From contig JBIOIY010000057.1 of the NCBI GenBank assembly GCA_044450345.1, positions 1 through 19,384 on the forward strand: a stretch of 19,384 nucleotides of DNA. Direction: 5' to 3'. Each line of letters begins with the position of its first letter. Position 1 is the first letter of the stretch. The position numbers were made by a program, and so were the translations under genes. Below, in pieces: positions 12,054 to 19,384 of this stretch. The notes under the pieces were generated by a model, which saw only the letters and a list, made by a program, of their open reading frames with translations, was not told where the DNA came from and ran no database searches. This DNA comes from Thermodesulfovibrionales bacterium. GTDB taxonomy: Bacteria > Nitrospirota > Thermodesulfovibrionia > Thermodesulfovibrionales > UBA6898.

Positions 12054-12071
12054 TTGAGGATGAAGGCGTCA

Positions 12072-12293
12072 TTAATTATCAAGGCAAGCTGACTGAAGTA
12101 TATCCCCAACCATTTCTTCGGGTGTATATATTCCGCTTTCCAGTTCACCCAGAGCGACTGACATGAAGGCTATCTGCTGGGCCTTATACCCGGTATGTCC
12201 GACCCAATCTTCGACTATCTCCCTGGTAATATCCTTGTTCGCTATTTGTACTTTTTTCGTCAGCGCATTATATAAGTTATCCAGTGTGGACAT
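12072..12293 (-). CDS. Small acidic hypothetical protein
   Basis: 73-aa ORF with a perfect AAGGAGG RBS upstream (cctcctt at about 12301-12307); no recognisable motif. Confidence 0.75.
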   Translation of the reverse strand: MSTLDNLYNALTKKVQIANKDITREIVEDWVGHTGYKAQQIAFMSVALGELESGIYTPEEMVGDILQSACLDN

Positions 12294-12465
12294 TGTAATC
12301 CTCCTTGCCCTTACCTCTTTAGCATAGCACGCCGTGCCGGTAGAGGATATTCAGGGATGAATTAAGTGTCTGTTAAGTCACTCCCATAAAATCAATAATG
12401 GTCTTCTGTGTTAAGGTAAGTATGTACTCGTAATGTTTATCGGTGTTAATAAAGGGGGAAGGATC

Positions 12466-12726
12466 TTGGAAAGTAACAAAAACATGCAATGCTGGAATTA
12501 CAATAACTGCGGTCATGGAAAGGATTCATTATGCCCTGCGGTTGATCAGAAGGCAGGCAGATCGTGCTGGCTCGTGGCAAAGACATTATGTGGGGGTAAC
12601 GTGCATGGTAAGCACACCGAAAGGACCAAATCATGTGAGGGATGTGCCTTTTACATATATATTCATGTATTGCTTTCCAAACTGTCCTCAGCACCTCAAC
12701 CCTATGATGAAAGAAGAGGGGTTTAA
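12466..12726 (+). CDS. Two-CW domain (Cys-rich, putative metal-binding) protein
   Basis: Pattern CW...C...CPA...GRSCW.VA.TLCGG...CxxC.FY. Start uncertain (12433 ATG, 12466 TTG with purine-rich RBS, or 12484 ATG). Confidence 0.7.
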   Translation: MESNKNMQCWNYNNCGHGKDSLCPAVDQKAGRSCWLVAKTLCGGNVHGKHTERTKSCEGCAFYIYIHVLLSKLSSAPQPYDERRGV

Positions 12727-12767
12727 GTACGCCGCAGCAATCTATCCCGTAAAGTCCGAAACATAGT

Positions 12768-14765
12768 CTAAATCGGGGTCCTCCCGCCGTCGAGCACTTT
12801 TCTGACCTCGTTTAAAAGAGTGTCCGGCGAGATAGGCTTTGACACGTAATTTATGGCCTCTTCGAGGATTTTTTTGTCTTGCAGAATGTTTGCTGAGTAA
12901 CCACTTATAAAGAGGGCTTTAATGTCGGGGTTCACTTGTCTGATTTCTTCGTAAGCCCGGTACCCGTTTTTCTTAGGCATCACTAAATCAAAAAGCAGGA
13001 AGTGTATCTTGTCCTTATTCTTGATAAACTCGGAGACTGCTTCCTCTCCGTCCCGTGCCTCTATCACCGTATATCCGTCCGTTTCGAGGATGCGCCTTGA
13101 AAGGCCTCTGACGCCTTCGTCATCCTCTGCGAGAAGAACGGTTTCACTGCTCCGGGATCTCTGCCTCTGTTCTGAACGGTTTCTTCCTTCCAGCCCTTTC
13201 TCCTCAACGAGTGTTTCATATAGGGGTAAATATATATTGAAGGTAGTCCCTTTCCCTATCTCGCTTTCAACCTCGATATAGCCTTCATGCTGCTTGACTA
13301 TCCCGTATGCCATAGCGAGACCGAGGCCGGTGCCTTTTCCGACTTCCTTCGTCGTGAAGAAAGGATCAAAGATCCGTTTCTTGTTTTCCTCGCTTATGCC
13401 CTCACCGGTATCAGAGACGGATAAGAGGGCGTAGCGGCCCGGCTTCTTAAAGCCTGCCTGCTCTTCTAATTCGATATATTCAGCTGCTATGGTGAGAACT
13501 CCTCCTCCGGGCATTGCGTCCCGCGCATTTGTGGTGAGGTTCATAAGCACCTGGTCTATCAGACCGGTATCTGCCATAATGACCAAATCCTTGTTGATAA
13601 GGCGCGTCCTGAATTCTATATCCTCGCTGATCAACCGCATAAGAATTTTCTCGACTGATAAGACGATGTCATTGATCTTTACCGGCTGGACTTTGATCAG
13701 CTGTTTTCTGCTGAAAGCCAGCAGGCTGTGGGTAAGCGTGGCCCCTTTCTCCACGGAATTCACTATTTGCTCCGCATAGGACTTTAATCGTTCGTCATGC
13801 TCAACCCCCATCCGTATAAGATGGCCATACCCCCCTATAGCCGACAGGATATTGTTAAAGTCGTGGGCGATTCCGCCTGAGAGGGTCCCGATTGCTTCCA
13901 TCTTCTGGGCCTGCCTCAGTTGTCCCTCTAACTGCTGTTTTTCCGTCTCCTTTTTTTTGAGTGAAGCCGCCATTTGATTGAAAGCCAGTGCAAGCTTCCC
14001 AATTTCGTCATTCGTCTCGACCCGGAGGGGTTCGACCGTTGATCCCTCTTCTATGGCCCGCACGCTTTCAGTCAGCTTGTCGAGCGGCCTCGTCACCTTT
14101 TTTACCATGAAATATAAGATAGCCGGGATGAAGGTAAGAAAGACCAGACATATAAAGATACCCTTTACTAAAAGAAGTGCTTGCTGTCTGTTCAGCATGC
14201 TTTTGTCCAAAACTATCCTTACGTAGCCTATCGTGCGTTTGACATTAGGATTGGCCTCGGGAAAGAACATGGACTCCTCGTTTGCGTAGGACAGCCCCGA
14301 AAGCACGGGGGTCCAGATCTCAAAAGTGTTCAGTGAATCCCTGTAGTAGAACTGTGCATGAGTTTCTCTCAAGTCCTTGAGAATCGGGGGGACCTGACTT
14401 TCATCCTGAGTCGGGTCTTCTGCCGTCCCGCTGCCACGTTTATTTTTTTTGACAAGAATTTTTCCTTCGGAGTTAAAGGCCGTCACGGAGAGGGTCTTTT
14501 TGTTTTCGAGATATGTCCTGAGGACGTCTTCCATGAGCGCCGTATTCTCGGAGAAGATACTAAGTCTCAAACTGTGAGCAACAAGCTGCGCGAACAGCTC
14601 GCCTTCATTCCTGATACCTTGTTTGAGGGTCCTGGTTTGTTCGTAAAGAAAAACTGCTGTGAAACTGATTGTGATGATTAAGATAAGAATAGTCAACCTT
14701 AGAAATACCTTTGTGCCGAAGCTCTGGCCTATTTTTCTCAAAGAACTGCTTAATTTCGCTTTCAT
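12768..14765 (-). CDS. Membrane hybrid sensor histidine kinase (periplasmic sensor-HAMP-HisKA-HATPase-REC)
   Basis: Two TM segments, HAMP (TRPLDKL...DEIGKLALAFNQM), H-box GGIAHDFNNIL, N-box NARDAM, G-boxes DTGEG/GTGLGL, receiver (LAEDD...DLVMP...KP). Confidence 0.95.
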   Translation of the reverse strand: MKAKLSSSLRKIGQSFGTKVFLRLTILILIITISFTAVFLYEQTRTLKQGIRNEGELFAQLVAHSLRLSIFSENTALMEDVLRTYLENKKTLSVTAFNSEGKILVKKNKRGSGTAEDPTQDESQVPPILKDLRETHAQFYYRDSLNTFEIWTPVLSGLSYANEESMFFPEANPNVKRTIGYVRIVLDKSMLNRQQALLLVKGIFICLVFLTFIPAILYFMVKKVTRPLDKLTESVRAIEEGSTVEPLRVETNDEIGKLALAFNQMAASLKKKETEKQQLEGQLRQAQKMEAIGTLSGGIAHDFNNILSAIGGYGHLIRMGVEHDERLKSYAEQIVNSVEKGATLTHSLLAFSRKQLIKVQPVKINDIVLSVEKILMRLISEDIEFRTRLINKDLVIMADTGLIDQVLMNLTTNARDAMPGGGVLTIAAEYIELEEQAGFKKPGRYALLSVSDTGEGISEENKKRIFDPFFTTKEVGKGTGLGLAMAYGIVKQHEGYIEVESEIGKGTTFNIYLPLYETLVEEKGLEGRNRSEQRQRSRSSETVLLAEDDEGVRGLSRRILETDGYTVIEARDGEEAVSEFIKNKDKIHFLLFDLVMPKKNGYRAYEEIRQVNPDIKALFISGYSANILQDKKILEEAINYVSKPISPDTLLNEVRKVLDGGRTPI

Positions 14766-14766
14766 C

Positions 14767-15663
14767 TCAGTTGATTCCCTTCCCCCGGAAAATGGTCTCG
14801 TTGCTGATGGGTCTCCCTATTTTTTTTGCCGTTATCTGATTTACCGTGACGTTGGCTTTCCGCGCATCAACACTTGGGATATCCGCAACATCGGCCCCCG
14901 ACAGGATCTTCTCTACCATTTCTCCGGCCTGCCTCCCGATATCTCTTGCATCTATATTTGCGGATATTACCGCGCCCATTGACAGGTATTTCTCCGAAAA
15001 GGTCATGACAGGTATCTTGTTCTCAAAGGAAAAGAGAAAGAGATATTCTACAGTCACGGGGGAGAAAACCGTTGAGTCGGGTATCATCCAGAACACGTCT
15101 ATTTTGTCTTTGAGACTGTTAATTTTCAAAGGAACATCCCTGGGATGATGGATTTCCTTCACAATGATCTTTATCGGCGTGTCCCTGGATGAGGCAAGTG
15201 CTTTTTCGACGAAGCCTCCGGATGTTAGAGGGTTGTAGAGAAGACCTACCTTGTGGAGGCCGGGGAAGGCCTCCTGGAGCAGAGACAACTGCTTTTTAGG
15301 CGCTATATTCATGCTGACACCCGTAACGTTAGCAGCCGCCAAGTATATAGATTCCGGGTTGGACACCATTGCATACACAATGGGAATATCTTTGATCGCT
15401 TTAAGTCCGAGAAGCGCGTTCGCCCCGACGGCCAGAATGACATCAGGCTTGGAGGAACGGATTTCTCTGAATATATTCAGCCCTTCCGCTTCTGAAAGGA
15501 CCAACTCCCTTACCGTGCAACGACATGTGTTCTTGAAGCCTTCGACCGCCTCGTTGTAAGGCCCTATCTTGCTGCTTTGGACTATGAGTACGCTCTTTTG
15601 GCCCGCATAGGCGTGTGCGAAGGTAAGGAAGAAAAGTAATATAAGTATTAAATACTTTTGCAA
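14767..15663 (-). CDS. Periplasmic substrate-binding protein (ABC_sub_bind-like), orphan from any ABC transporter
   Basis: Signal peptide ending AHAYA; type-I PBP pattern (PYNEAVEGF, VILAVG, NVTGVSM, VGLLYNP, IGRQAGEM, VNQITAKKIG); TTG start with GGGGGA RBS; stop 1 nt before the kinase ATG. Confidence 0.85.
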   Translation of the reverse strand: MQKYLILILLFFLTFAHAYAGQKSVLIVQSSKIGPYNEAVEGFKNTCRCTVRELVLSEAEGLNIFREIRSSKPDVILAVGANALLGLKAIKDIPIVYAMVSNPESIYLAAANVTGVSMNIAPKKQLSLLQEAFPGLHKVGLLYNPLTSGGFVEKALASSRDTPIKIIVKEIHHPRDVPLKINSLKDKIDVFWMIPDSTVFSPVTVEYLFLFSFENKIPVMTFSEKYLSMGAVISANIDARDIGRQAGEMVEKILSGADVADIPSVDARKANVTVNQITAKKIGRPISNETIFRGKGIN

Positions 15664-15763
15664 ATCAAATTTCCCCCGCTTGTAGACATGAGGCGATATT
15701 TCTTATATAGTTAGTTTAAACGCTGTAACCTTATAAGCAACTAAATACACTATATCAAACTTT

Positions 15764-17643
15764 ATGAACAGAGACCAATTAATAAAAAAAATAATGGCCC
15801 TCTGTCTTTTCGCCTTTTCTGTTTCATTTATCTCTGATGCCTGGGCACAGTCTGAAGATGAAATCAATACGCTCCGGATGTTCTACGAAGAGAAAGACCT
15901 CGTCGTGACTCCCACGAGGCATCTTAAGCCCACCTCCCACGTGGCCGAGAACATGACGGTCATCACCTCCGGTGATATCGAAGAGATGAACGCTCATACG
16001 CTGGCCGATGTCCTCTTTAACGTAACCGGCGTTCAGGTGGACTCACGGGGCGGCCCGGAAGCGCTGATACCGTCCGGATACAGGGCTCGGAATTCAGGCA
16101 TGCAATTGTGATAATCGATGACGTAACACTCAATAACCTTTCCGACAGCTTCGCCGATATTGCCGCTGTCCCTGCCCAGATTATCGATAGGATTGAAATT
16201 ATCAAAGGGCCGGCCTCTTCCGCATGGGGTTCGTCGCTGGGGGGAATAATCCACATTATAACAAAGGGTGGCGATGTATCACGGAAGGCAGGAGGAATGC
16301 TTTCTGCGTCTTACGGCGAGAGGAACACGGGAGATTACAGGGCTGAGGTTTCCGGGAAGGTGGAGAGTCTTTCCTATTACCTGTACGGCGGAAATCTTGT
16401 TTCGAATGGATTAAGGCCAAATACTCCTTTTTATGAGAACAATATTTATTCAAAATTTAAATGGGATGTCTCGTCAAAAGCCAACGTTGCCTTCACCTTT
16501 GGCTATAACCAGGGGACAAGGGGAGAGGGGCAGTATCCAGCCGTTGATCTCTCCTTCGGCAACGCCTTCGAGTATCTTTTTTCTACACTAGCCTTCAATT
16601 ATTCGCTGACCGATACCGCAGACCTTAATGCATCTTTGAGGACCTCACGTCAGCGTGCAGAACTCATCAATAACAGCCTCAGTACCGGTGAAATCCTATC
16701 AGACAGCAACATTGACGATAAGAGCAGCGGCGGGAGCCTCAAGTTCACATGGAAAAACAGCATTCATGATGTGGTCTCAGGCTTTGACTATGACTACGGG
16801 GAACTAGTGTCAAATAATATCACCGGCGGAAAACAGAGCCTTGGCAAATGGGCGGTATTTGTGAATGACACGATGACAGCCGCCAAGTTCGCCTTCACTC
16901 CAGGCATCAGGTATGATCACACAACCACAAACGGCAGCTTTGTGAGTCCAAGCCTGGGGGTGACCTATAATCTTGGTGAAAAAACGATGCTGAGAGCCGT
17001 CGGAGCAAGAGGGTTCAGTACCCCTCCCCTTTCGGCGACCTTCGGCACCGGGACCTTCTTTGTGCCAAACCCGGATCTAAAGATGGAGAAGGTATGGTCT
17101 ATGCAGGCCGGCATCGAATCAACTGGTCTGAAATACCTCTGGGTGAAGGCTACTGCGTTCAGGCATGAAATTACTGATGCACTTTTCAATGAGACCTTGA
17201 GTGACGGGACGTTTACGGCTGTCAACCAGGGAAGACAGAGGAGACAGGGATTCGAGTTCGAGTTGAAAACAGTACCGGTCTATGATGTCTCCCTTTCTGC
17301 AGGCGTTGCCTTTACCGATGCCACGGATAGAGATACCGGGGAAGTAGTGCAGGATATCCCCCGATATACTTATGATGTGGGGATCCATTACAACGACAAC
17401 AAATCGCTCAGGGCCTTGCTAAAGGGCCATTATATCTGGTGGAACACGGAGTCAGTAACCAATGCTCAGTATAACTCTATGATATGGGACCTCAGCCTCA
17501 CTAAAAAGATTTTTTCTTCCGGTAAGAGAAGCGTGGAGTTTTTTTTTACAGCCCATAATATCTTTAACGGCTCTCAATATGCGGTGGATGTCTTCAAGAA
17601 CCCCAGAAGATGGGTCGAGGCAGGACTGCGGCTTAAGATATAG
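15764..17643 (+). pseudogene. TonB-dependent receptor (BtuB-like plug + barrel) with a 1-nt frameshift near 16055-16058
   Basis: Signal peptide, VVTPTR, plug motifs (VITSGDIEEM, IDRIEIIKGPASSAWGS..GGIIHIITK), barrel motifs (PGIRYD, NPDLKMEK, HNIFN, PRR). Adding one base gives continuous RGGPGSADTVRIQGSEFRHAIVIIDD, about 626 aa. Confidence 0.88.
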
Positions 17644-17727
17644 AAATAGGAGATCGTCTCATTTTCGAAATATAAACGATAGGGCCTCCATTGGAGGCGT
17701 TCTGAGATCATATGAGAGGAGGAAAAG

Positions 17728-17826
17728 ATGAAAAAGGCGATAGTCGTCCTCAGCAAAGGGATAAAGGATTCAGCCGGCCCGACAGGTCTCTGCTGCTACT
17801 TGGCCTTCGTGCCGTTAAGGTGGTAG
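17728..17826 (+). CDS. 32-aa RiPP precursor peptide, geopeptide-like: MKKAIVVLSKGIKDSAGPTGLCCYLAFVPLRW
   Basis: Manual translation; strong GAGGAGG RBS; leader-like IVVLSKGI followed by a CC-containing core; lies immediately upstream of a radical SAM/SPASM gene. Absent from the ORF track because it is under 60 aa. Confidence 0.88.
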   Translation: MKKAIVVLSKGIKDSAGPTGLCCYLAFVPLRW

Positions 17827-17850
17827 GGCTAGGTTTAAGATTTACTCGAT

Positions 17851-17877
17851 GGGGGGAGACAACTCCCCCCCTTTTTT
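17851..17877 (+). terminator. Intrinsic terminator / attenuator between peptide and maturase
   Basis: GGGGGGAG-ACAA-CTCCCCCC perfect 8-bp stem followed by C and T6. Confidence 0.8.
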
Positions 17878-17885
17878 CAAAGGCA

Positions 17886-19187
17886 ATGCAATTATCCAGA
17901 TATATTAAGACATATACGTATGAAGGTGATCCCGACTACCTGGTTCTTTATTCCACCAGGCGGGCATCGACGATCCTCCTGCCTAAGACCGCGCTTGAGC
18001 AAATAGAAAAGGGAGAACTGGAGCCTTCTGACCAGGAAGTTCTTTTTGATCTCGGGTTTTTGGTCCCTGACAGGGATGAAGAAAAAAAGGAGATGCTCGG
18101 TCTTATTGATGTCATTAACAAACGTGCGAGAAGATTCAATGCCATTGTGGTTATGAACCTCGACTGTAACCTGCGCTGCACCTATTGCTATGAAGGAAAC
18201 ATGAAGGGGGAGCGCTATATGTCCGCCGAGACCCTCGGGCTTCTGGCAGATTTTCTCGAAAAACATGCCCTTTCTCGGGGCAAAGACGTACATATCGATT
18301 TCTACGGCGGCGAGCCCCTCTTAAGCTTTGATGATATCAGGAGGGTCTCTGAGAGGCTGAAATCGTTATCTGCAGGTCGGGGGCTCACGTACTCCTTCAA
18401 TCTCGTGACAAACGGGACCCTGTTGACGCGGGCCAGAACAAAGGAGCTTGCAGCCCTGGGAATGAAGAGTGCAAGAATAACGCTCGATGGTCCAAAGGGT
18501 AACCATGATGCCTTCAGACCCTTCAAATCCGGGAGCGGGACCTTTGAAACGATCGTAAAGAACATCAGGGATGTGTATGATATCCTGAGCATCCAGATCG
18601 GCGGAAACTATACCCAGGAGAACTACACGAGGTTTCCAGAACTCCTTGATTATCTCATCGCAGAGGGTCTTTCGCCGGACAAGTTTCTCATCGTCAAATT
18701 TGATCCCGTCGTAAAGCCGGGGGGGAGGTTTGCACTTCCGGAATTCAGGGACGGCAGCGAATCGATCAATGAGCCCTGGATATTCAGGGCCACCCTTTTC
18801 CTTAGAGAGGAGATCCTTAAGCGGGGCTTCAAGACCCCTAAAATCCTCCCCTCCCCTTGTATGATAGGGCTGACGAATGATGTTGTGGTGAATTATGACG
18901 GGACGATCTACAAATGCCCCGGGTTTATCGGGTGGGAGGGGTTCGAGGCCGGTGATCTCAGGACAGGCATGGCGGATATTGAGGGGTCTCATGCCCTTGA
19001 TATCTGGAAGAACGAGCAGTGCCTCGACTGCGAATACCTGCCGCTCTGCTTTGGGGGATGCAGGTTTATGAAGGTCCTGAGAGACGGAAACATTCACGAG
19101 ATCGATTGCAAAAAGCCTTATCTGGATGCAACACTTGAGACCCTTGTCGGACAGGACATAAAATACATGCCGGAGACCGGCGATTGA
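17886..19187 (+). CDS. Radical SAM/SPASM peptide maturase (geopeptide maturase-like)
   Basis: CNLRCTYC (18165-18188), FYGGEP, VTNG, ITLDG; full SPASM motif C-x13-G-x4-C...C-x2-C-x5-C-x3-C-x15-C; ~85-aa N-terminal RRE-like extension. Start reassigned to ATG 17886 (MQLSRY), 433 aa. Confidence 0.93.
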   Translation: MQLSRYIKTYTYEGDPDYLVLYSTRRASTILLPKTALEQIEKGELEPSDQEVLFDLGFLVPDRDEEKKEMLGLIDVINKRARRFNAIVVMNLDCNLRCTYCYEGNMKGERYMSAETLGLLADFLEKHALSRGKDVHIDFYGGEPLLSFDDIRRVSERLKSLSAGRGLTYSFNLVTNGTLLTRARTKELAALGMKSARITLDGPKGNHDAFRPFKSGSGTFETIVKNIRDVYDILSIQIGGNYTQENYTRFPELLDYLIAEGLSPDKFLIVKFDPVVKPGGRFALPEFRDGSESINEPWIFRATLFLREEILKRGFKTPKILPSPCMIGLTNDVVVNYDGTIYKCPGFIGWEGFEAGDLRTGMADIEGSHALDIWKNEQCLDCEYLPLCFGGCRFMKVLRDGNIHEIDCKKPYLDATLETLVGQDIKYMPETGD

Positions 19188-19384
19188 TCACGACGAATGA
19201 AAGGAATCTCCGCATATTCACGAGTGTGAGCTCTATCTGGGCTGTTGTCATGGGATTCATCGGCCCTTTTTATGTGCTTCAGGTCGCGAAGCTCAGCGGC
19301 GGGGTGGAAAAACTCGGTTTGGCCTTCAGTATAATGGTGCTGCTCCAGGCGGCTACTACCTATATTGTCGGCGGCTACTCCGAT
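19184..19384 (+). CDS. MFS transporter, N-terminal part (runs off the window)
   Basis: TTG start overlapping the rSAM stop (TTGA); MITTNERNLRIFTSVSSIWAVVMGFIGPFYVLQVAKLSGGVEKLGLAFSIMVLLQAATTYIVGGYSD gives two TM helices and the start of MFS motif A (G..SD). Confidence 0.75.
   Translation, partial: MITTNERNLRIFTSVSSIWAVVMGFIGPFYVLQVAKLSGGVEKLGLAFSIMVLLQAATTYIVGGYSD

Follow-up and report, generated by a model that had tools for sequence, protein, structure and literature searches.

A geopeptide-class maturase cassette joined to a candidate peptide-perception path in a Thermodesulfovibrionales bacterium

Why would a gene for a 32-residue Cys-Cys (CC) peptide, and the radical S-adenosylmethionine (SAM)/SPASM enzyme predicted to modify its product, lie beside a TonB-dependent receptor, a periplasmic binding protein and a hybrid sensor kinase? 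The question is posed by contig JBIOIY010000057.1 (C57) of a Thermodesulfovibrionales genome (GCA_044450345.1; 3.19 Mb in 86 contigs, 91% complete), which we analyzed over its whole length of 19,384 nucleotides and call the window. Peptide signaling is textbook knowledge for Gram-positive bacteria, whereas the signals familiar from two-membrane bacteria are mostly small, diffusible molecules. The original prediction for this DNA was that the modified peptide is exported, recaptured through the receptor, held by the binding protein and sensed by the kinase. All the genes it named are in place (Table 1), and the peptide gene, the radical SAM enzyme, the binding protein and the hybrid kinase are as it described them. 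We find that the best explanation of the locus is a geopeptide-class cassette for a ribosomally synthesized and post-translationally modified peptide (RiPP) joined to a dedicated perception path. A full loop, in which the peptide is made, released, re-imported and sensed, has in our estimate a probability of about 0.45, and the original interpretation is partly supported overall.

Assignment to the geopeptide class comes from the maturase, which scores 617.3 bits against the NCBIfam model TIGR04280, "geopeptide radical SAM maturase" (cut-off 400), with residues 1-427 aligned to model positions 1-427 of 428. In translation it carries the motif CNLRCTYC (CxxxCxxC) and seven C-terminal cysteines; Pfam detects Radical_SAM and Fer4_12, and the Pfam SPASM model did not report on it at E 0.01. 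The next-best NCBIfam families are other cysteine-peptide maturases, all far under their cut-offs, including the PapB-family model (130 bits, cut-off 340) and the SCIFF maturase model (107 bits, cut-off 425). The closest solved chain is 5wgg (4.3e-23), which we take to be CteB. From these scores the enzyme appears to be a relative, not a member, of families with proven cysteine thioether chemistry; its nearest characterized relatives convert cysteine thiols to thioethers. Some geopeptide-type maturases are longer, with open reading frames (ORFs) of 690-735 residues, as opposed to ~435, at L131:5019-7100 and L132:9320-11500 and also in genome G613; these appear to be fused to an extra C-terminal part.

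The neighborhood of the maturase was surveyed with profiles built from our own cassette proteins at 59 non-duplicate maturase loci: 50 from a sample of 401 Nitrospirota genomes, 5 further ones and the 4 of this genome (three more, L010, L011 and L013, were dropped as duplicate contigs). Allowing that the loci are not independent, since some are close kin (e.g. L015 and L082), a receptor was found at 53, the binding protein at 52, the sensor domain at 44 and a CC peptide at 46. Many of the misses are at contig ends, and at the 35 loci with at least 5 kb on both sides the counts were 34, 31, 29 and 28, respectively, with all three proteins together at 29. Sensors missed by the HisKA-type profile are HisKA_3 kinases followed by LuxR-type regulators. 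The regulator after the sensor in relatives is LuxR-type or sigma-54-type, and many relatives have precursor, enzyme, kinase and response regulator in a single co-oriented operon.

The same arrangement recurs outside the Nitrospirota. Matches over the TIGR04280 cut-off occur in 44 of the 401 Nitrospirota genomes and in 22 of 301 sampled genomes of Thermodesulfobacteriota. In the latter phylum, 20 regions with 21 maturase genes yielded a receptor for all 21, the binding protein for 19 and the sensor domain for 17, and one further region has an adjacent kinase without a match to the sensor profile; gene order and strand vary while the set remains together. The set of receptor, binding protein, sensor, peptide and maturase is conserved across two phyla, and the neighborhood survey suggested along with the original prediction gave the outcome hoped for, in that receptor, binding protein and sensor adjoin the maturase homologues. 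One region of Thermodesulfobacteriota, L123 (G568:C1:373000-392900), contains two complete cassettes side by side, ~6.6 kb apart.

The precursor gene ends 59 nt before the maturase start, on the same strand, and encodes MKKAIVVLSKGIKDSAGPTGLCCYLAFVPLRW, with a conserved leader (MKKxIVVLxKG), Cys-Cys at positions 22-23 and a hydrophobic tail ending in PLRW. We do not regard the gene as a chance ORF, since each of the four cassettes of this genome has a CC peptide with the common leader in this position, as do 46 of the 59 related loci. Across all loci only the leader and a CC-x-[GL]-[AS] center are conserved; the tails differ strongly between clades and are conserved within them (e.g. Ile-Pro-Tyr-Leu-Trp in L071, L072 and L074). 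A long lysine-rich insert (KKKA/KKKT repeats) separates leader and Cys-Cys core at L050:6166-6378 and L053:1746-2099, with further lysine-rich-insert precursors at L063:10724-10945 and L069:147-341. Tandem precursor genes precede a single maturase at L061:8960-9293, where the cores are slightly different, and at L048:8716-9241, where they are identical.

The sensing arm is tied together both in the genome and, by prediction, in structure. The TGA stop of the binding-protein gene lies one base from the kinase ATG, and the two genes are translationally coupled; binding protein and sensor are paired at 44 of the 59 loci. No ABC permease or ATPase genes are present in the cassettes, which argues against import into the cytoplasm. 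The kinase is built as a first transmembrane helix, a periplasmic sCache_4-like domain (residues ~42-198), a second transmembrane helix, HAMP, HisKA, HATPase_c and a receiver; the sCache_4 match is weak in the window kinase (E 0.0032), and orthologous sensors give 5.5e-08 to 1.9e-05. One loop of the periplasmic part, EESMFF (162-167), follows the conserved pattern [DE]E[AST][LM][YF]F across 20 cassette sensors. For the binding protein, a profile of 12 cassette homologues matches the solved PF04392 proteins 3lkv, 6hni and 3lft. We found no paper, judged by title, on signaling by PF04392 proteins, and no description of a PF04392 binding protein paired with an sCache_4-type sensor.

Kinase residues 42-198 and binding-protein residues 21-297 were co-folded using our own alignments of 20 and 12 rows. 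The score was 0.72 (median of three runs) against 0.00 for the best control; at least 43% of the contacts are shared between runs, and the predicted local distance difference test value of the partner is at least 86. Of 157 solved complexes, 116 attain the mark that we applied, and of 215 mismatched pairs 2 do so, a calibration that holds only roughly here because own alignments were used. The closest predicted contacts run from the EESMFF loop to the conserved binding-protein residues I32, P34, M117, P194, F221 and S222. This model, of a kind that the original prediction had suggested as a check, supports docking of the binding protein on the periplasmic domain of the kinase. Since the aromatic sensor loop meets, in the model, a PF04392 protein, and the solved PF04392 proteins bind Trp, Tyr and Phe, the aromatic/hydrophobic tail of the peptide might compete with or complete the loop contact. 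Positions that vary among the three recent binding-protein paralogues are not enriched at the predicted interface (5 of 29, compared with 58 of 298 overall).

The genome carries four cassettes. TIGR04280 matches over the cut-off lie on C57, C7, C67 and C9, the three paralogues of the window maturase scoring 578-613 bits. The C57, C7 and C67 cassettes are recent copies, their enzymes sharing 89-90% identity, their receptors 90-92% and their binding proteins 85-88%; the C9 copy is old (52-53%, 48-50% and 36-38%, in the same order) and has its own 526-residue kinase together with a sigma-54-type regulator. Peptide, enzyme, receptor and binding protein were duplicated together. The copied segment extends from position 14703 of the window as far as the end of the contig and takes in the first 20 kinase codons, which C7 and C67 retain as a remnant (L119, C7, 4621-4680, 80% identity; L120, C67, 4842-4901, 70% identity). 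The peptide leaders are almost identical across the four cassettes, and the cores read CCYLAFVPLRW, CCYGSFVPLRW and CCYLSFVPFRS in the recent copies and CCKPGIAQNKV in C9. C57, C7 and C67 each break inside the MFS (major facilitator superfamily) gene that follows the maturase, and an MFS 3′ end stands at the start of contig C3; the assembly was probably broken by the three-copy repeat. We considered whether the three near-identical cassettes might be strain variants binned together and rejected this, as the flanking genes differ for each. Beyond the remnant on C7 lies a nucleotidyltransferase/HEPN pair, and beyond that on C67 a long ORF that is, from its translation, a putative rpoC.

The receptor and the exporter were both part of the original prediction, and for both it needs correction. 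The receptor is at its predicted place, however it is not an intact gene: relative to the C7 and C67 paralogues and the closest relative, L009, one C is lacking at 16053/16054, which splits the reading frame. The extra C is present in one ~90%-alike public contig. Public contigs that align to the window are 88-95% alike and thus come from relatives, so a true frameshift in this strain cannot be told from an assembly error by means of them. The remainder of the receptor matches TonB_dep_Rec_b-barrel at 1.9e-37 and is 90-92% identical to the intact paralogues, and the receptors on C7, C67 and C9 are all intact; if the frameshift is real, the window copy would depend on them. The DLVVTP motif near the receptor N-terminus is presumably TonB-box-like, given its likeness to BtuB. 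The four cassette receptors are the only Plug-domain genes of the 91%-complete genome, and the NCBIfam models that come closest to the receptor are those of siderophore and B12 receptors, with scores below every cut-off. We rejected a B12 receptor, since the BtuB models, the best for the N-terminal piece, give 33 bits against cut-offs of 600 and 836, far too low, and since no cobalamin riboswitch is present. The genome has a single ExbD (C14:35662-36015) adjoining a single TonB_2 (C14:34988-35230), a pair that could equally be a Tol system. As to the exporter, the gene start is present and is cut at 67 codons. These codons alone have no Pfam match, and the MFS identity therefore rests on the 144-residue fragment of the C67 paralogue (MFS_1, 4.2e-13) and on orthologues, which are 185-194 residues at full length.

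We hypothesize that these parts would act in sequence. The enzyme would recognize the conserved leader and cross-link the Cys-Cys core, most likely through thioether bonds as in its nearest characterized relatives. The product would then leave the cell, in this clade with the half-size MFS protein carrying it across the inner membrane, return to the periplasm through the receptor and be captured by the binding protein, which once loaded would alter kinase activity. The outcome would be a self-produced signal of the autoinducer type. We favor this loop because the set is tightly linked in two phyla, because receptor and binding protein are copied along with the rest of the cassette and change in step with the peptide core, and because the binding protein feeds a kinase and not a transporter. 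That the peptide is the ligand, and that it is exported and re-imported, we infer. As only two of the copies have a kinase, the kinase-less ones may report through the window kinase. A broader statement, which we consider doubtful, is that diderm bacteria use a radical-SAM-modified ribosomal peptide as a cell-to-cell signal, that perception needs active TonB-dependent import and that a PF04392 protein hands the signal to an sCache_4 kinase. If so, three peptide/receptor/binding-protein channels would converge on one hybrid kinase, C9 would be an older fourth channel with its own kinase and sigma-54 regulator, and genomes with only receptor, binding protein and sensor would be eavesdroppers.

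Several observations weigh against the loop. The curated precursor model TIGR04229, which has 22 positions and a cut-off of 30 bits, does not match the window peptide at E up to 10; within this genome it scores highest on the C9 peptide, with 17.3 bits. An NCBIfam scan of the window peptide and an overlapping 50-codon ORF likewise gave no match; from the TIGR04229 result we take the window peptide to be a divergent precursor type. The solved PF04392 proteins bind the single aromatic amino acids L-Trp, L-Tyr and L-Phe, not peptides (PMC10443332). Two of the four cassettes, those on C7 and C67, have no kinase, and the window receptor does not have Plug and barrel in one ORF. No TonB_C domain was matched in the genome, at 91% completeness. 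The half-size MFS gene adjoins the maturase in 9 of the 59 loci, which puts the exporter outside the conserved set, and no leader peptidase was found in the surveyed flanks, where 150 of 199 flanking ORFs were scanned against Pfam.

A reverse survey, starting from the binding protein, adds to these points. A profile of 12 cassette binding proteins (E 1e-25 or better) matched 179 of the 401 Nitrospirota genomes, and the maturase matched 55 (E 1e-60 or better; 44 over the cut-off). Both are present in 49 genomes, leaving 130 of the 179 binding-protein-positive genomes without a maturase. At 20 maturase-free loci (L096-L115) the sensor is directly beside the binding protein in 19, and 18 match the sensor-domain profile; their outputs include plain kinases, hybrid kinases and a GGDEF-EAL protein (L113). 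A receptor is adjacent in 6 of the 20, 3 of them close homologues of cassette receptors, and neither a maturase nor a CC peptide was found at any. The original prediction had itself named, as a result that would tell against it, a receptor, binding protein and kinase found mostly without peptide and radical SAM genes. That is the case for the pair of binding protein and sensor (130/179); the receptor accompanies the pair only sometimes, and the maturase-linked clade stays tight. Since the pair is widespread without peptide or maturase, its ancestral ligand would have been something other than the peptide. One of these loci has a sensor ORF (L097:10373-12778) in which HAMP, HisKA, HATPase and receiver domains are followed in one frame by a RadC-like JAB domain, by fusion or a missed stop.

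A quick tree built from 72 binding proteins, with SH-aLRT support, clusters the maturase-linked proteins, with 6 label changes compared with 19.8 in shuffles, a contrast that near-copies inflate. Unlinked proteins branch deeper, and a few are nested inside the maturase-linked cluster. Binding-protein clades match peptide-core classes, the C9 clade having basic hydrophilic tails and the window clade hydrophobic Pro-Leu tails; this match speaks for the loop, although it may simply reflect common descent of the whole cassette. Our own reading of the tree is that, within one large clade, an old binding-protein/sensor pair would have acquired receptor, peptide and maturase, and that losses followed.

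Unlikely, in our view, is that the peptide is a metallophore on the methanobactin model, where the modified Cys-Cys peptide would be secreted, bind a scarce metal, return through the receptor and be held by the binding protein, and the kinase would respond to this loaded form by adjusting production. The layout is that of methanobactin operons (PMC7558416), however the maturase is not of the MbnB/MbnC type and the binding protein belongs to PF04392, not to the OppA type; a search of the seven cassette proteins found no MbnB/MbnC or OppA-type domains. The cassette receptors, as the only TonB-type gates of the genome, belong to a class normally used for metal chelates, and the receptor is nearest to siderophore/B12 receptors, though under all cut-offs, yet no permease is present through which the metal could enter the cytoplasm. 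The two adjacent cysteines never vary, but the nearest enzyme relatives make thioethers, which would remove the thiol metal ligands. Several cassettes with different tails in one genome also fit signals better than a single metal. Should this explanation be right, the cassette would represent a second class of metal-carrying ribosomal peptides, this one in anaerobes.

Improbable, too, is that receptor, binding protein and kinase sense an unrelated external ligand, for example one like an aromatic amino acid, and thereby regulate a peptide operon whose product acts elsewhere, as an antimicrobial or inside the cell. The known PF04392 ligands (Trp, Tyr and Phe) would suit such a role, as would the greater age and far wider distribution of the binding-protein/sensor pair than of the maturase, the close homologues of the cassette receptor that L097 and L098 have without a peptide, and the lack of a conserved exporter. 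Within the maturase clade, however, the genes stay closely linked in two phyla even where their order and strand have been rearranged, and receptor and binding protein are duplicated with the whole cassette and diverge together with the peptide core, which is hard to explain with one common metabolite. Very improbable is a cofactor or small molecule cut from the peptide on the model of pyrroloquinoline quinone (PQQ), with a Cys-Cys-x-Gly-Ala center excised, shared and retrieved by receptor and binding protein: conservation of only the leader and center across all loci, possible scavengers among the genomes with receptor, binding protein and sensor but no maturase, and the existence of a PQQ-importing TonB receptor as NCBIfam family PqqU fit this, but no further tailoring or excision enzymes are conserved among the 150 of 199 flanking ORFs scanned with Pfam, the binding protein feeds a kinase and not a transporter, and the tails are conserved within clades and do not drift freely.

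How the cassette is regulated can be addressed in part from the window. The original prediction had an AT-rich region of 100 bp driving both arms; the region is there, and "driving" is an interpretation, as its one promoter-like site of sigma-70 type is on the + strand only. Promoter-like sites are not commoner in the region than in shuffles (9 found, 7.7 expected). The sigma-54 consensus has no match in the cassette and 2 elsewhere in the window, compared with 7.2 expected; the C9 cassette copy has 5, compared with 4.7 expected. An Rfam scan of the window found no family at the gathering score, and we therefore place no riboswitch before the receptor. The hairpin upstream of the peptide gene is at the same place in all four cassettes, and an equivalent of the one 3′ of the peptide gene is found in the three others. 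As their folding energies are not unusual against shuffles (z -0.93 for 17684-17698 and -0.58 for the other), the case for them rests on position and a terminator scan; the second is probably an attenuator setting the ratio of peptide to enzyme. No RNA run is listed among public sequencing runs as containing the stretch, and the best-matching DNA runs contain at most 0.26 of the words sampled from it.

Other parts of the window were noted in passing. The ~700 bp downstream of the kinase (12054-12767) have no convincing gene and no Rfam match; a 97-codon cysteine-rich ORF at 12433-12726 (+) has no Pfam match. Contig C35 begins with the same 141 bases as the window (positions 1-141), a repeat at the contig end.

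Table 1. Features of the cassette in the window and positions of its paralogues
Feature	Position	Strand	Remarks
Hybrid sensor histidine kinase, 665 aa	12768..14765	-	Pfam HAMP, HisKA, HATPase_c, Response_reg
PF04392 (ABC_sub_bind) periplasmic binding protein, 298 aa	14767..15663	-	1.7e-35; signal-peptide-like N-terminus
Divergent intergenic region	15664..15763	.	Exactly 100 bp; 32% G+C (window 52.7%)
Sigma-70-like site	15683-15711	+	Only one in intergenic region; 10/12 match
TonB-dependent receptor, whole gene	15764-17643	+	Two ORFs: 15764-16111, 16108-17643
Receptor N-terminal piece	15764..16111	+	Signal peptide, DLVVTP motif, first half of Plug (positions 4-44)
Receptor remainder, -1 frame	16054..17643	+	Plug 61-106 and beta-barrel; listed ORF starts at 16108
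Short G+C-rich hairpin	17684..17698	+	Between receptor stop and peptide gene; same place in 4/4 cassettes
Precursor peptide gene, 32 codons	17728..17826	+	Behind GAGGAGG ribosome site
Terminator-like hairpin, 8 pairs (7 G-C), then six T	17851..17877	+	Between peptide and maturase genes
Geopeptide radical SAM/SPASM maturase, 433 aa	17886..19187	+	TIGR04280
Half-size MFS transporter, first 67 codons	19184..19384	+	Overlaps maturase stop; cut by contig end
Other cassettes	C7:1-4683, C67:1-4900, C9:47153-54631		MFS 3′ end at C3:2-268

If the loop is real, a ribosomal peptide that is pumped back through the outer membrane before it is sensed would be a different design from the known ones, with perception that is energy-dependent and gated. 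The cassette is widespread in anaerobic Nitrospirota and Thermodesulfobacteriota, and because its carriers include relatives of the cultivable Geobacter, bench tests of the idea are feasible. The PF04392/sCache_4 sensor pair, which is older and more widespread, has no described ligand or function and does not appear in a review of signaling binding proteins, which contains neither "ABC_sub_bind" nor "TonB" (PMC8050422).

Among known systems, the geopeptide system, defined by computation through TIGR04229 and TIGR04280, is the one to which the cassette belongs by its maturase, a full-length member with a CC precursor directly upstream, whereas the precursor itself falls outside the TIGR04229 model. 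We found no paper on these two models or on the cassette in a search outside which most subscription journals lay ("gageopeptides" are unrelated), and for ranthipeptides with TonB, judged by title and the start of the abstract, only genome surveys and reviews. The thioether-forming radical SAM/SPASM maturases (the SCIFF maturase CteB, PapB and the ranthipeptide enzymes) are the best characterized sequence relatives, and all act on short Cys-containing peptides; unlike the cassette, their systems are not known to be linked to TonB receptors, and the scores lie far below the family cut-offs.

The closest known layout is that of the methanobactin operons (MbnA, MbnBC, MbnM, MbnT and MbnE), which combine a precursor of 22-40 residues, maturases, an inner-membrane efflux pump and a TonB-dependent importer for re-uptake, and for whose periplasmic binding protein the inner-membrane partner is not known (PMC7558416). 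To say that no characterized system has such a layout, as the original prediction did, was too strong, since these operons combine most of the parts; we found no precedent only for coupling a binding protein to a kinase for a ribosomal peptide. Where methanobactin operons have MbnBC and an OppA-like protein, the cassette has a radical SAM/SPASM enzyme and a PF04392 protein. The cassette binding protein is coupled to a two-component kinase, whereas methanobactin operons are coupled to an extracytoplasmic function sigma pair.

For the last step, the closest likeness is to LuxP/LuxQ-type kinases, where a binding protein without a transporter is likewise encoded beside the kinase (PMC8050422), and docking is predicted for the cassette. 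LuxPQ joins a Peripla_BP_4 protein to the LuxQ periplasmic domain, whereas the cassette joins PF04392 to sCache_4, and its presumed ligand is a ribosomal peptide that would first need a TonB gate. Like the agr and Com systems, the cassette groups in one locus the genes for a small precursor and its modifying enzyme with those for a membrane kinase and a response regulator; in contrast to them, it has no AgrB- or ComA-type processing exporter, and its kinase would be reached through an outer-membrane gate and a binding protein.

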